Assembly (NCBI GenBank): GCA_903853785.1
Contig: CAINUM010000063.1
Coordinates: 2,974-66,973, forward strand
Source of the DNA: Candidatus Magasanikiibacteriota bacterium
GTDB lineage: Bacteria > Patescibacteriota > Patescibacteriia > Magasanikbacterales > GWA2-37-8
Reading direction: 5' to 3'
DNA: 64,000 nt
A program made the position numbers and the translations under genes. The notes beneath the pieces are model-generated. The model did no database searches. It saw only the letters and a program-made list of their open reading frames with translations, and had not been told where the DNA came from. This document shows positions 32,186 through 38,659 of the stretch, one piece after another. How positions within the stretch are numbered: the stretch's first letter is position 1; the number at the start of each line of letters is the position of its first letter.

Positions 32186-34309
32186 TTGATTGATATGGAT
32201 TTAGAGAAATCAGTGTCTACATTAAATAAAGTTGGGGTTGCGGTAGTGAAGAAATTGGATAAAATCGGTATTCATACTATCGGCGATTTGTTGTATTATT
32301 TTCCATTTCGTTATGATGATTATCAAGGGGTGGTAGGGATTAAAGAATTACAAGAAGGTAAATTGGTTTCAGTGAAAGCAAAGGTAGAATTAATCGCCAA
32401 TCGAAGAAGCTTTAAAACTCGCAAAATAATAACAGAAGCACTTGTATCTGATGGCAATAATAGCTTACGGATTATTTGGTTTAATCAGCCGTATGTTATA
32501 AAAAATATAAAGCCCGGCGATGTTTTTATATTTACCGGAGTTGTAAAAACGGATATGCTTGGACCACAATTAATCGCTCCAAGTTATGAGCGAGCAATTG
32601 ATGCAGAAAATACTTCACATCCAAAATTAGTACCAATTTATTTTTTAACCGCTGGTTTATCTCAAAAGTACTTACGTTTTCTAATAAAACAAGCTCTTCT
32701 AGAAATTAATAACTTGAAAGATTATATACCTACAGAAGTAATTGAAGAAAATGATTTTTTGCCACTGAATTTAGCTTTACAAGGCATCCATTTTCCAGAA
32801 GATAATAATGATTTAGCAAACAGTCAGAAGCGTTTAAAATTTGATGAAATATTTTTGGTTCAACTTAAATCTGAATTATCTAGAAAAAATCGTCTTCAAC
32901 AAAAAGCACCAAAAATAGTATTTAAAGAAAATGAAATTAAAGAATTGGTTAGTCAGCTGCCATTTGTTTTGACGAAATCACAAAAAATATCTGCTTGGGA
33001 AATTTTGAAAGATTTGGAAAAAACTAGTCCAATGAATAGATTATTATCAGGGGATGTTGGATCTGGTAAAACAGTTGTGGCCGCGATGAGTTTGTATTGT
33101 GCGACACTAAATGGTTTTCAAGCTATCATGATGGCGCCAACGGAAATTCTGGCAAAGCAGCATTTTCAAAGTTTGGAAAGACTGTTGTCAAAATATTTAA
33201 ATATTGCACTGCTTACTAGGTCGCAATTCTTGGGAGTAGTAAATAATCAACCAGTAGAATATAAAAAGAAAGATTTGATCAAAGGTGTTAGTGAGGGTCA
33301 ATTTAGTATAGTAATAGGAACGCATACTTTGTTGTCTGAAAAAATAATATTAAATAAACTGGCTTTAGTTGTTATTGATGAACAACATCGTTTTGGTGTA
33401 AAACAAAGAAAAATGATCAAGGAAAAGATTACTGGTTTAAATGGTTTGATGGCACATTTTTTGAGCATGACTGCCACTCCAATACCACGTTCATTAGCTT
33501 TGACATTGTATGGTGATTTGGATTTATCAACCATAGATGAAATGCCACTTGGGCGTAAAACCATAACAACAAGGTTGGTGGAGTCTCACAATCGTCAAAA
33601 AGCGTATGATTTTATTGCTGAGCAGGTTAAGAAAGGACGACAAGCGTTTGTAGTATGTCCGCTAATTTTGCCCGCAGATAGTTTGCAAAATGATAATAAA
33701 GAGGCTGTATTCTTCGATTTAGCCAACGAAAAGAAAAGTGTAGTGAAAGAGTTTGAATATTTATCAAAAAAAATTTATCCGAATTTTAAAGTTGGATATT
33801 TGCATGGCAAAATGCCTGGCAAAGAAAAAGATGAAATAATGCAAAAATTTAAAAAAGGTGAAATTGATATTTTAATTTCTACTTCTGTAGTAGAGGTTGG
33901 GGTAGACATTCCGAACGCTAGCGTGATGATGGTAGAAGGTGCAGAAAGGTTTGGCTTGGCTCAACTTCATCAATTTCGAGGTCGAGTAGGTCGATCTGAC
34001 CACCAGTCATATTGTCTACTTTTTACTACTAACGAAGCGAGGGGTAATACTTTAGACCGTTTGATTTTTTTTGAAAAAAATAATAGCGGTTTTAAATTAG
34101 CGGAAAAAGATTTAGATACTCGCGGTCCAGGTGAAGTTTATGGTGATTTACAAAGTGGTCAAGAAGTATGGAAATTAGCCGGACCAATGGATAGTGAAAT
34201 AATTAAAATTGCTAGATTTGCCGCAGCAAGAATCGCACCTCTTTTAAATAAATATCCAAATTTAAAGGAAAAAATTAATGATTTTATTTTAGGAAATCAT
34301 TGGGAATAA
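32186..34309 (+). CDS. recG: ATP-dependent DNA helicase RecG
   Basis: Wedge/OB N-terminus, GDVGSGKT Walker A, VIDEQHRFG and helicase C motifs at 707 aa. Confidence 0.9.
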   Translation: MIDMDLEKSVSTLNKVGVAVVKKLDKIGIHTIGDLLYYFPFRYDDYQGVVGIKELQEGKLVSVKAKVELIANRRSFKTRKIITEALVSDGNNSLRIIWFNQPYVIKNIKPGDVFIFTGVVKTDMLGPQLIAPSYERAIDAENTSHPKLVPIYFLTAGLSQKYLRFLIKQALLEINNLKDYIPTEVIEENDFLPLNLALQGIHFPEDNNDLANSQKRLKFDEIFLVQLKSELSRKNRLQQKAPKIVFKENEIKELVSQLPFVLTKSQKISAWEILKDLEKTSPMNRLLSGDVGSGKTVVAAMSLYCATLNGFQAIMMAPTEILAKQHFQSLERLLSKYLNIALLTRSQFLGVVNNQPVEYKKKDLIKGVSEGQFSIVIGTHTLLSEKIILNKLALVVIDEQHRFGVKQRKMIKEKITGLNGLMAHFLSMTATPIPRSLALTLYGDLDLSTIDEMPLGRKTITTRLVESHNRQKAYDFIAEQVKKGRQAFVVCPLILPADSLQNDNKEAVFFDLANEKKSVVKEFEYLSKKIYPNFKVGYLHGKMPGKEKDEIMQKFKKGEIDILISTSVVEVGVDIPNASVMMVEGAERFGLAQLHQFRGRVGRSDHQSYCLLFTTNEARGNTLDRLIFFEKNNSGFKLAEKDLDTRGPGEVYGDLQSGQEVWKLAGPMDSEIIKIARFAAARIAPLLNKYPNLKEKINDFILGNHWE

Positions 34310-34373: not shown

Positions 34374-34399
34374 CTGCGCTAAGATCAATAATCACTGGT

Positions 34400-34800
34400 T
34401 TTGCGTAGGGACGCGAGATTCGGTGGTCAACAAGAGGGGACCTGTCTAATGTCCGGCCAAGATAAAATTCTGCATTTCGGCATTCCCATCAAAGTGATGG
34501 GGCACAAGATTCGCACGATTCGTAGCCCGTTTCGCGGTATCGTGCAAGTCGCGGTCATTCGTCCGTCTGCCCGTGGTGGTGAGATAGTTCTTCGCTGGAA
34601 GGACATCAACCAACTCGGCATCAATCGGGCTGACCTCGACAGTGCGTTCCGAAAGCAGATGAAGGGGGCTGTTTCCCTGTTCTAGCCCTATGGGGCGTTC
34701 CTACAATTTAGTAGTTCAATGCAGTCGCGCGAGCGACTTTACTGACCTGATTGCAGGCAGCTGGCTGTGGATTTCTTAATTCGCAGCCTTTGCATTTAAA
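34400..34800 (+). other. GC-rich island C: structured RNA candidate and/or small ORF (78 aa, 34449..34685) with foreign-looking codon usage
   Basis: About 400 nt visibly GC-rich. The ATG at 34449 is preceded by GAGGGGA 8 nt upstream. The ORF uses CTG, CGC, GGC and ATC codons that are atypical for this genome. 3' hairpin is GTCGC-GCGA-GCGAC. Confidence 0.35.
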
Positions 34801-34877
34801 ACACTCTCCAACATATATTACATTGTCAAGAATGACTCTATTGTGATAAAATATAGCCATTAAATAAGAAAATTATT

Positions 34878-37289
34878 ATGTCAGCAGAAAAATCTGGAGC
34901 CGGATTTGGCTATGAATTATCTGAAGGAGCACAAATTGATTTGAGAGATTTAGGACGTGAAGATGCAAAACCTAGAGAAATGTCTCGTGTTTTTATTTAT
35001 CAATCAAAAGGCACAGATCAGGTTAGGGCAGAATTAATGTCAGGTAAATCCCCAGATCAGATTTCTTTTATTAATCTGATTTTTGCCGAAAAAAATGCCG
35101 ACAGTATTAGTCCAAACCAACTTTTACCAGTTGGTGGTTCTAAACGCCCGGGAGATAAAAATTCTTTAGAGGTTGCCAGAAGACGTATGCTTGAGGAAAC
35201 CCATTTACGCCCAATTAAAATCAAAAAATTGGGGAATATGGATTATAAATTAAATGATCCACGAAAAGAAAAGGCGGAGAAAATTGCAGCCACTTATTAT
35301 TTAGCTGAAGTTTTGCCATTGGATGTTGCGTATTCTCTAAATCCTCATGAAGATAAAATCGCAGGTTATCATCAGATAGATTTGACTACATATCGGGATG
35401 AAATTTTACGACAAGGTTTTTATGTTGCCGATGAAAATTCTGATGGAGAGAGAAAATTGCCAATGATAGATAGTTTGAGAGTGAGATATGAAGTTGGACC
35501 GGAAGATATGACTTCAAATATAGTAGAAGATATATCGGCGCAAAACGTCGCCGAACTCCAGGGTAGGTTAGTGGAAGAATTAGAGAATAAAGATTTTCAA
35601 AAAACTCAAAAAATTCTCTATCACCTGATCTCTTTGATGGATATGGATTCAAATGCTGTAGAGTATTGGATTGATGATGTCGATAAAGCAAAGAACATAT
35701 TGGATTCTACTAAAATTTTAAAGGATTTGTTGAGTTATGCGGCAAATGAAGTTTATAATAATGATGTTACGAAAGTTAGTGAACTTTTTTTGGCAGCCTT
35801 TGATCTGAGCAATTTTGAAGACGAAGTTTCTGAAAAACACGCTGGGAGATCTCACAATGAAATGGTTTTGCGTGTCGTTTTTTCATTACTAGAATCCAAA
35901 TTCAATTATGATAATTATATAGAATTAGTAAAAGCGAATCCAGATTTAGCAGATTTTGGTGAGCGATTAGAAAAATTTATCGGTATTCTTTCCAGTGGTG
36001 GAAACGAAACAGGTAATCGAAAAAAATTAGCATTTCAATTAAAAGGGCTTGACCAAATAGATCCGGAACTTGTTGAAGAGGCTTTTTTTGAGGCGTTTTT
36101 CGATTTTATTCCTAAAGATGCAGATGGAAAAAAACAGTTTGAACGAAGAATTAATAAAACCTTAGCAGCTATTGATAGTTTGTTAGATGAAAAGATTGTT
36201 CGTTCAAAATTGGCTCCAGTAGTTCGTGATCAATATAACGAACGCTTGTTAACTCAGGTGGGTGAAATTCGTAATGCCAAAATTTTTACTTTAATGAAAT
36301 ACGCTTTGCCGGGTGTTGGTTTGGAAGAAAAAAGTCGTTTTAAAGCGGATCAAGATGAGGTGAGTGGTCCGCAAGATAAAAATATGTTGCGCCGTGTTGT
36401 TTTTGAGGCAAGACGTAAATTGGCGATGTTATTTTTATTATTAGAATCAGACGAATATTACGATGAAGTAATAGATTTAGGTTCTCAAGAAATTCAAGCA
36501 TTGTGGAATGATATTTTAGATCCACCCAAAGTAAACTGTTTTCTATCTGAAAAACGTAACGAAAATAATGATCTGTTGGATATAGAGTCTAATTTTGTTA
36601 TGCCAGATAATAGCAGTGCTCAAACGATGGCCGTACGTCCGTTTAAAAATAAACTGGGGGATACTACTATGCTGGTTGGTCAATCGCTGCGAAGAAAAGA
36701 GAGAGAATCGGTTTATCGCAAAATGATTGTTCGTGGGTTTGATCGTCCGGAAGATATTAAGGATATTAATGGTCGCTCACTTGTAATTATGCCATCCAAA
36801 GATCAGCCGTTATCTGAGATTTTAAAAAAAGAAGAACGAGTGTTAGAAATTTGTGATCGTGATAATAATGGAAATTATGTTTGTGAGGATAAAAACTTTG
36901 AAGATCACGTGGCAGTATTTGATATAATTGAAAGTTTGCAGAAAGACAAACATGTAAAAATTTTAGAATACAAGCCAACTAATGAACCGGGAACTTCTTT
37001 TGATAGTAATGGAGCTGGCGGTGAAGGTCAGATTAGGTTAGCAAAATTTTATATTCAACATACTGATAATAATGGAAACGTTAGGACTGAAGAGGTTCAA
37101 ATTTTTACCCCTTCTGCAGATGGACGCAGTGGTTTTTATTGGGAAAAGAAAAAGAAAGAGGACGATGAAAGTTATGAATTTGATCGTCTGTTGCGTACCA
37201 AAGGGGTGCATTCATTTGTGGAGATTCTTTATCCAGCAAAAATATTTGGTAAACCAATTCAAAATGTAAATAAGAAAAAACGATCGTAA
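34878..37289 (+). CDS. multidomain protein: N-terminal Nudix hydrolase domain, large alpha-helical middle region, C-terminal RelA/SpoT-type (p)ppGpp-synthetase-like nucleotidyltransferase domain
   Basis: Nudix box GGSKRPGDKNSLEVARRRMLEETHL (GG-x5-G/E-x7-REuxEE) at aa 86-110. At the C-terminus, RRKERESVYRKM matches the Rel G-loop GRPKHIYSIYRKM, DIKDINGRSLVIM matches EIYDLLAVRILV, and EEVQIFT matches EVQIRT. Confidence 0.55.
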   Translation: MSAEKSGAGFGYELSEGAQIDLRDLGREDAKPREMSRVFIYQSKGTDQVRAELMSGKSPDQISFINLIFAEKNADSISPNQLLPVGGSKRPGDKNSLEVARRRMLEETHLRPIKIKKLGNMDYKLNDPRKEKAEKIAATYYLAEVLPLDVAYSLNPHEDKIAGYHQIDLTTYRDEILRQGFYVADENSDGERKLPMIDSLRVRYEVGPEDMTSNIVEDISAQNVAELQGRLVEELENKDFQKTQKILYHLISLMDMDSNAVEYWIDDVDKAKNILDSTKILKDLLSYAANEVYNNDVTKVSELFLAAFDLSNFEDEVSEKHAGRSHNEMVLRVVFSLLESKFNYDNYIELVKANPDLADFGERLEKFIGILSSGGNETGNRKKLAFQLKGLDQIDPELVEEAFFEAFFDFIPKDADGKKQFERRINKTLAAIDSLLDEKIVRSKLAPVVRDQYNERLLTQVGEIRNAKIFTLMKYALPGVGLEEKSRFKADQDEVSGPQDKNMLRRVVFEARRKLAMLFLLLESDEYYDEVIDLGSQEIQALWNDILDPPKVNCFLSEKRNENNDLLDIESNFVMPDNSSAQTMAVRPFKNKLGDTTMLVGQSLRRKERESVYRKMIVRGFDRPEDIKDINGRSLVIMPSKDQPLSEILKKEERVLEICDRDNNGNYVCEDKNFEDHVAVFDIIESLQKDKHVKILEYKPTNEPGTSFDSNGAGGEGQIRLAKFYIQHTDNNGNVRTEEVQIFTPSADGRSGFYWEKKKKEDDESYEFDRLLRTKGVHSFVEILYPAKIFGKPIQNVNKKKRS

Positions 37290-37301
37290 GATCGTTTTTT
37301 T
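37275..37301. terminator. bidirectional terminator between the Nudix-SAS gene and radA
   Basis: AAAAAACGATC-GTAA-GATCGTTTTTTT. The stop codon of the plus-strand gene lies in the loop. Confidence 0.6.
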
Positions 37302-37309
37302 GTTTAGTA

Positions 37310-38659
37310 TTATTTTTGAATTATTTTTTCAACTACTTCTTGAACGTTTTTTATCGGCGCTGTTTTTAGTCCGGTTATCTTAGGAATTTTTGATGATAGG
37401 GGAATCACAGCAATTTCTAATCCTAAATTTTTTATTTCCGTTAATCTTTTTTCTGTATGATTCACAGGACGCACTTCGCCGCTGAGTCCAACCTCTCCAA
37501 AAGCGGCAAGGCCTGGAGGAAGTGTTTTGTCTTTTAGCCCAGAAGCGATTGCGAGAATGACTGCTAAGTCTGCTGCCGGTTCATCAACGGTTAAGCCACC
37601 AACTACATTTAGAAATACATCATAAGACTCAAGAGGTAATCCAGCTCGACGCGATAAGACACCGATCAAAACCTGTAATCTGTTTAAATCGAATCCTGAA
37701 GCTCGGCGTTGAGGAAATCCAAAATTTGTTTTCGTCACTAAGGCTTGAATTTCAATAAGCATAGGGCGAGTGCCTTCCATGATTGCTGTAATAACGGTAC
37801 CTGGTACTGGTTCGTTTCTTTCTGAGATCATCGCAGCCGAAGGATTTTTAACTTCCACTAGTCCATCTTTTTCCATGGTAAATACACCAACTTCGTCGGT
37901 TGGACCAAAACGATTTTTGGCGGCACGTAAAATTCTAAAATCGTGAAAGCGGTCTCCCTCAAGATAAAGAACGGTATCTACCAGATGCTCCAAGGTTTTA
38001 GGACCGGCAACAGCGCCATCCTTGGTAACTTGTCCAACTAAAATAAATGTTATATTATTTTTTTTCGCAGCCTCAAGTAATTTTACTGTGCATGCTCGCA
38101 CCTGTGAAATATTTCCAGCTTCACCAGCCACTTCATCAGAATAAACTGTTTGGATTGAATCAATAATTGCTAATTTGCATTTTGTCGTCAGGCTAGTTGC
38201 AATAATAGTTTCGATATTGGTTGCACTTGCAAGTTCGAGAGTGGGGGATGAAATATTTAGTCGTAAAGCTCTCATTTTGATTTGTTGGGTAGATTCTTCT
38301 CCAGAAAAATATATAGTTTCTGGAATGATATTAGCTAATTGCAAAGCGAGGGTAGATTTACCCACACCAGGTTCACCGCCAAGCAATATTAGACTACCCG
38401 GAACTATTCCACCACCAAGCACACGATCGAGTTCAGAAATATTTGATTGGAATCGTTTAAAATTTTGGCTACTAATGTCTTTTAATTTTTCAGTTTTAAT
38501 TGGTAAATAATTTTTGGACAGGTCTTCTTTTTCTTTTCCTATAGGTGCGTTTACTTGTTCAACAGTACCCCATTTTCCACATTCCAAACATCGCCCAGTC
38601 CATTTCTGGAATTGGGCGCCACAGTGGGAGCAAGTAAAAATTATTTGATTGTTTTTCAT
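37310..38659 (-). CDS. radA: DNA repair protein RadA/Sms
   Basis: N-terminal C4 zinc finger (CSHCGAQF...CLECGKW), RecA-like GGEPGVGKSTL and a Lon-like C-terminal domain. Confidence 0.9.
   Translation of the reverse strand: MKNNQIIFTCSHCGAQFQKWTGRCLECGKWGTVEQVNAPIGKEKEDLSKNYLPIKTEKLKDISSQNFKRFQSNISELDRVLGGGIVPGSLILLGGEPGVGKSTLALQLANIIPETIYFSGEESTQQIKMRALRLNISSPTLELASATNIETIIATSLTTKCKLAIIDSIQTVYSDEVAGEAGNISQVRACTVKLLEAAKKNNITFILVGQVTKDGAVAGPKTLEHLVDTVLYLEGDRFHDFRILRAAKNRFGPTDEVGVFTMEKDGLVEVKNPSAAMISERNEPVPGTVITAIMEGTRPMLIEIQALVTKTNFGFPQRRASGFDLNRLQVLIGVLSRRAGLPLESYDVFLNVVGGLTVDEPAADLAVILAIASGLKDKTLPPGLAAFGEVGLSGEVRPVNHTEKRLTEIKNLGLEIAVIPLSSKIPKITGLKTAPIKNVQEVVEKIIQK

Follow-up and report, generated by a model that had tools for sequence, protein, structure and literature searches.

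A Nudix-fold domain joined to a divergent RelA/SpoT-like domain in a previously unannotated protein family of Patescibacteria

Bacterial stress signalling centres on enzymes of the RelA/SpoT type (RSH), whose diversity has been surveyed with HMMs. (p)ppGpp can be broken down or trimmed by the Nudix hydrolases NahA of B. subtilis, Ndx8 of T. thermophilus and MutT/NudG of E. coli, which makes the pairing of a Nudix domain with an alarmone synthetase biochemically sensible; all of these are stand-alone proteins of ~130-180 aa whose boxes are canonical. The genes of toxSAS, in turn, are organised in TA operons of two or three genes (PMC7229694).

Here, I describe a gene that appears to combine a Nudix with an RSH-like domain in a single polypeptide. 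It lies in the window, i.e. the whole stretch of 64,000 nucleotides that was analysed, between recG and radA:

34878..37289, plus strand: open reading frame of 803 aa (ATG at 34878, stop at 37289), with a Nudix-fold domain, a central helical region, a RelA/SpoT-like pyrophosphokinase domain and a Lys-rich tail
32186..34309, plus strand: recG, the conserved same-strand neighbour upstream (Pfam RecG_wedge, DEAD and Helicase_C; synteny in ~20 loci)
34823..34852, plus strand: promoter-like site TTGTCA-18-TG-TAAAAT, 26 nt 5' of the start codon (consensus scan; sequence resemblance alone)
37274..37301, unstranded: bidirectional terminator-like hairpin between the 803-aa gene and the convergent radA
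37310..38659, minus strand: radA, the conserved convergent neighbour downstream (RadA-typical Pfam matches; synteny)

The original prediction had read this frame as a Nudix hydrolase fused to a RelA/SpoT-type synthetase-like domain, in an architecture that its reader did not recognise. The frame is present as described, and so are all the motif strings quoted from it (GGSKRPGDKNSLEVARRRMLEETHL at residues 86-110, RRKERESVYRKM at 605-616, DIKDINGRSLVIM at 626-638 and EEVQIFT at 738-744). Family profiles, hhalign and structure comparison bear out the fusion of a Nudix-fold with a synthetase-like domain, and neither a Nudix-RSH fusion nor (p)ppGpp enzymes of Patescibacteria turned up in the literature searches. 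The Nudix-helical-SYNTH domain architecture appears to be new, and has been missed by standard annotation. The gene is best explained, with a probability of roughly 0.55, as a chromosomal, vertically inherited, Patescibacteria-specific three-part enzyme, the essential activity of which would reside in a C-terminal, very divergent RelA/SpoT-type pyrophosphokinase domain.

The family comprises ~118 clusters at 50% identity, mostly of 700-850 aa and of like architecture, from Ca. Magasanikbacteria, Parcubacteria and other Patescibacteria, and carried no prior annotation. Its deeper members were recovered by an exhaustive representative search; a word-index homolog search with larger alignments yielded nothing beyond one fragment or the 6 close homologs already found. 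The Pfam census below covers 53 family members and the residue census 96. The N-terminus of the window protein is shared with five homologs at 71-79% identity and with one at 51%, and its C-terminus ends in a KKKRS tail. Single-sequence searches (Pfam, NCBIfam, PADLOC, PHROGs and phmmer against PDB) gave a sub-threshold NUDIX match only; a Pfam HopA1 match (residues 177-278, E=0.003) is treated as noise, since it occurs in just 1 of the 53 members.

The C-terminal domain and its parts are as follows:

36630..37262, plus strand: RelA/SpoT-like (RSH SYNTH-like) nucleotidyltransferase-fold domain, ~residues 585-795
36690..36722, plus strand: putative ATP-donor helix RRKERESVYRK (R605, K607, S611, R614, K615), the counterpart of GRPKHIYSIYRK of Rel (HMM and HH alignments)
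36753..36791, plus strand: strand DIKDINGRSLVIM, residues 626-638, in which D629 corresponds to the catalytic Mg-binding Asp of RSH DxxGxR (HMM/HH alignments)
36969..37040, plus strand: family-specific loop YKPTNEPGTSFDSNGAGGEGQIRL, located where RSH enzymes have their G-loop (model and colinear greedy hhalign alignment)
37089..37109, plus strand: strand EEVQIFT, residues 738-744 (E739, Q741), the counterpart of RSH EVQIRT (extended hhalign and strand order of the model)
37152..37187, plus strand: helix KKEDDESYEFDR after the EVQ strand (K759, D762, D763, Y766 and R770, each at least 90% conserved; role inferred only)

Homology to RSH emerges only from family profiles and from a structure model. 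The Pfam RelA_SpoT model, which had been expected to detect the domain, finds nothing in the window protein, even with the E limit raised to 10, and matches 1 of 53 family members at E=0.078, short of the threshold; a small home-made RSH HMM reaches E=0.45 against the window protein. When the family profile is compared with PDB, RelA/SpoT synthetases make up 9 of the best 12 matches (E from 0.006), and all nine align on RxKxxxSxxRK...DxxGR, that is on the ATP-helix and the Asp-strand. Against 10 genuine RSH SYNTH domains, hhalign gives a Prob of 59-66% (P=9e-5 to 6e-5); the confident alignment spans only ~45 columns, and its extension, at low confidence, is colinear through YKP/PK and EVQ. The AlphaFold2 model of residues 580-797 (pLDDT 91.2) displays an alpha/beta nucleotidyltransferase core with RSH-specific topology, with the loop at the G-loop position flanked by model strands 114-120 and 143-150 and KKEDDESYEFDR forming model helix 173-193; as modelled, the domain has the RSH SYNTH fold. 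Foldseek searches returned nothing significant in PDB, where Rel stands at rank 5 (E=0.18), and nothing significant in BFVD. The proposed equivalence of three blocks (the RxK..S..RK helix, the Asp strand and the EVQ strand) holds in the profile and structure comparisons; their supposedly identical spacing does not, the first two blocks being one residue off relative to Rel.

R605, K607, S611, R614, K615 and D629 align to GRPKHIYSIYRKM...FDLLAIRVIV of Rel, RelA and RelP, so that an RxKxxxSxxxK helix is followed, ~12 residues on, by the catalytic Asp. K607 and D629 occur in 96 of 96 members, K615 in 95 and E739 in 94, and these four residues are jointly present in 93/96; R614 (91/96), G714 of the family-specific loop (92/96), Q741 (84/96) and S611 (80/96) follow. 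In the EVQIRT strand, Glu and Gln correspond to E739 and Q741, as placed by the low-confidence extended hhalign alignment and the strand order of the model. Judging from these alignments, the domain keeps the donor-side machinery of RSH enzymes, namely the RxKxxxSxxRK helix, D629, E739 and Q741. The acceptor side is another matter: no G-loop PKxNGYxSxH with its base-stacking Tyr is found, nor any equivalent of NGY or SxH, and in its place stands a loop with the family consensus YKPtPxxGxxxxSxGpGGGGxiR, ~15 residues longer than the RSH G-loop. Of the catalytic residues, those on the donor side are nearly invariant among the homologs. Because the guanine-stacking loop has been replaced by a long Gly-rich one, the acceptor could differ, and without PKxNGYxSxH the sequence does not imply alarmone synthesis.

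By analogy with RSH catalysis, the C-terminal domain would bind ATP-Mg, the RxKxxxSxxRK helix holding the ATP phosphates and D629 the Mg, and would move the beta,gamma-pyrophosphate to an acceptor 3'-OH. The acceptor would most probably be a purine nucleotide, yielding an alarmone akin to (p)ppGpp or (pp)pApp; such a product would fit the linkage of the gene to recG (compare E. coli spoT-recG), ndk and guaB described below.

The N-terminal and central parts comprise four features:

34974..35447, plus strand: Nudix-fold domain, ~residues 33-190 (Pfam NUDIX and family-profile PDB matches)
35133..35207, plus strand: degenerate Nudix box GGSKRPGDKNSLEVARRRMLEETHL, residues 86-110 (G87, D93, R102, R103, E106, E107; column census)
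35475..36602, plus strand: central region, mainly alpha-helical, ~residues 200-575 (low-confidence full-length model)
36402..36422, plus strand: FEARRKL motif, residues 509-515, with E510, A511 and R513 kept in at least 90% of members (alignments)

A Nudix profile match, also expected, is found for the family and falls short for the window protein itself: Pfam NUDIX is detected in 38 of 53 members (best E=5e-11), whereas residues 82-146 of the window protein score 17.2 bits (E=0.005), the gathering score being 21.1. In PDB, the family profile finds MutT, MTH1, Ap4A hydrolases and other Nudix structures at E=1e-5 to 1e-2, with MutT at the top (E=1e-5). The Nudix fold is hence recognised at the family level by profile, the full-length AlphaFold2 model, built on 6 sequences, being of low confidence (pLDDT 39).

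The box of the window protein had been called canonical, which it is not. The column census gives GGx5Ex7REuxEETHLR as the family consensus; the window protein reads G87-x5-D93-x8-R102-R103-M-L-E106-E107-T-H109-L (GGSKRPG-D-x8-RR-MLEE) and departs from the catalytic GX5EX7REUXEEXGU by Asp93 in place of Glu, an inserted K94 that lengthens the spacer by one residue, R103 in place of the first REUXEE Glu, and His in place of Gly. Across the family the box is fully canonical in 44/96 members, and the REUXEE glutamates, which the homologs were supposed to conserve, are all three intact in 53/96, with at least one missing in the other 43, the window protein included. With 43/96 boxes degenerate and the synthetase residues retained, the proposal that Nudix replaces HD as the hydrolase is doubtful for the window clade, where the domain, to judge by its residues, is probably crippled. 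In family members whose box is intact, roughly half of the total, the Nudix domain may act as a pyrophosphohydrolase of product or substrate, in functional analogy with the HD hydrolase of Rel/SpoT or with NahA, Ndx8 and MutT. In the window clade, where the box lacks a catalytic glutamate, the domain probably serves as a non-catalytic module for ligand binding or autoinhibition, much like the pseudo-hydrolase of RelA.

A helical separator between the two ends had been foreseen; helicity is indeed predicted, over ~390 aa rather than 450. No recurrent Pfam family occurs in this region among the 53 members, nor does the family profile give a meaningful PDB sequence match for it. The idea of a pseudo-HD, in which this region would be a degenerate HD domain or three-helix bundle of long RSHs, gained no support: there are no Pfam or PDB sequence matches, and the region does not align to the area upstream of SYNTH in real RSHs. 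The helical middle would couple the Nudix and synthetase domains.

Among the alternatives, one in which the protein modifies RNA or tRNA ends survives best, and is nonetheless unlikely. The RSH-like domain would pyrophosphorylate the 3' ribose of RNA, and an RppH-like Nudix domain would act on 5' ends or caps, with nucleic-acid binding falling to the Lys-rich tail and the Gly-rich loop. The long Gly-rich loop in place of a nucleotide G-loop, the KKKRS tail and the presence of B. subtilis RppH among the Nudix matches in PDB (E=0.006) speak in its favour, as does the fact that the tRNA CCA end is usable as an acceptor by RSH domains. However, Pfam recognises no RNA-binding domain in the window protein or the 53 members, the top Nudix matches are the NTP pyrophosphatases MutT and MTH1 rather than RppH, and the ndk and guaB neighbours in several loci point toward nucleotide metabolism.

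The genomic context bears on the remaining alternatives. The order recG -> gene <- radA recurs in ~20 loci down to 27% identity, a constancy that argues for vertical inheritance; the gap to recG is often 1-15 nt, and in most related loci the gene starts at that distance after recG. In addition, ndk precedes the gene in 2 loci, and the gene precedes that of IMP dehydrogenase (guaB) in 3. No small partner gene adjoins it in most loci, PADLOC and PHROG hold no match for the 803-aa protein, and no relatives of it were found in the IMG/VR, INPHARED phage and PLSDB plasmid collections; these features do not match the TA-operon or defence-island context, the patchy distribution and the mobility of toxSAS or CapRel-type systems.

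These observations disfavour the CapRel-like toxin-antitoxin or abortive-infection sensor envisaged by the original prediction, in which an RSH-like toxin making (pp)pApp or pyrophosphorylating tRNA would be restrained in cis by the Nudix and helical parts until triggered by a phage. Deep vertical synteny, frequent translational closeness to recG, the scarcity of partner genes, the missing PADLOC, PHROG, viral, phage and plasmid counterparts, and an 800-aa architecture uniform across the family make it improbable, and the gene probably has a housekeeping role rather than one in a toxin-antitoxin system. The neighbouring recG and radA might equally well indicate DNA or nucleotide-pool roles, or no more than frozen synteny. 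A DNA-repair or nucleotide-pool enzyme, in which a MutT-like sanitising Nudix domain and a generic pol-beta-type nucleotidyltransferase would work alongside RecG and RadA, the RelA/SpoT likeness being convergent or fold-level, is less probable still. Least probable of all is a catalytically inert C-terminal domain with a structural or binding task and a motif likeness devoid of functional meaning: standard domain models do fail to detect it and Foldseek gives no significant match, yet the residues that are invariant at 20-30% family identity are the RSH catalytic positions (K607, D629, K615, E739), while the Nudix catalytic residues drift freely in the same proteins.

The GC-rich island noted beside the gene is real (34390-34790, 51-57% GC versus ~36%). 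It holds a small ORF with in-frame conservation in three relatives and foreign codon usage, has its own promoter-like and terminator-like sites, is missing from other close relatives, and finds no match in Rfam. A structured RNA or a regulator of the gene was rejected on these grounds, and the island is, therefore, regarded as an unrelated inserted cassette.

Returning to the preferred reading of a three-part pyrophosphokinase, it may tentatively be extended: the family might be a stringent-response enzyme of Patescibacteria, an RSH pyrophosphokinase divergent enough to be missed by RSH censuses, with Nudix in place of HD (a hydrolase in some lineages, a regulatory pseudo-enzyme in others) and a Gly-rich acceptor loop through which the product could be other than (p)ppGpp, be it a new alarmone or a pyrophosphorylated target of a new kind. 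If active, it would extend the RSH superfamily by a deep branch and by a Nudix-helical-SYNTH architecture, both new, provide a candidate for nucleotide second-messenger signalling in Patescibacteria, which are genome-reduced and largely uncultured, and amount to a natural experiment on a hydrolase partner that was swapped and repeatedly inactivated, resembling the Rel-to-RelA transition. With its reshaped acceptor loop, the family is also a candidate for new RSH chemistry.

As regards known systems, the C-terminal domain has in common with RelP/YwaC and RelQ/YjbM (PF04607) the order of secondary structures, the RxKxxxSxxxK helix, the Asp strand and the EVQ strand. It differs from them by a beta-hairpin insert (~residues 651-677) after the Asp strand, by YKPxPxxGxxxxSxGxGGGG in place of the PKxNGYxSxH G-loop, the Pfam model being blind to the family domain, and by another C-terminal helix motif (KKxDDxxYxxxR); moreover, it ends an 800-aa protein, whereas RelP and RelQ are ~200-aa stand-alone tetramers. 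The fixed synteny, the lack of a partner gene in most loci and the absence from phage, plasmid and viral collections set the family apart from the fused toxSAS CapRel, from the toxSAS FaRel, FaRel2 and PhRel, and from the T6SS effector Tas1. In contrast to NahA, Ndx8 and MutT, the Nudix domain here forms part of a larger protein, and the first REUXEE glutamate is missing from it in the window clade.

With Rel, SpoT and RelA, the family shares two nucleotide-metabolising domains per polypeptide, the same synthetase fold and chromosomal, housekeeping-like genes. Like Rel/SpoT, it is linked to recG and to guanine-nucleotide genes (the E. coli order being gmk-rpoZ-spoT-trmH-recG), and its non-synthetase domain, here Nudix, has repeatedly degenerated, as in the pseudo-hydrolase of RelA. 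It is not a long RSH, since no HD, TGS or ACT Pfam domain occurs in the window protein or the 53 members: in place of the HD, TGS, ZFD and ACT domains of Rel, SpoT and RelA there is a Nudix partner, and the order of partner domain, ~390 aa of helices and synthetase at the extreme C-terminus differs from that of long RSHs.

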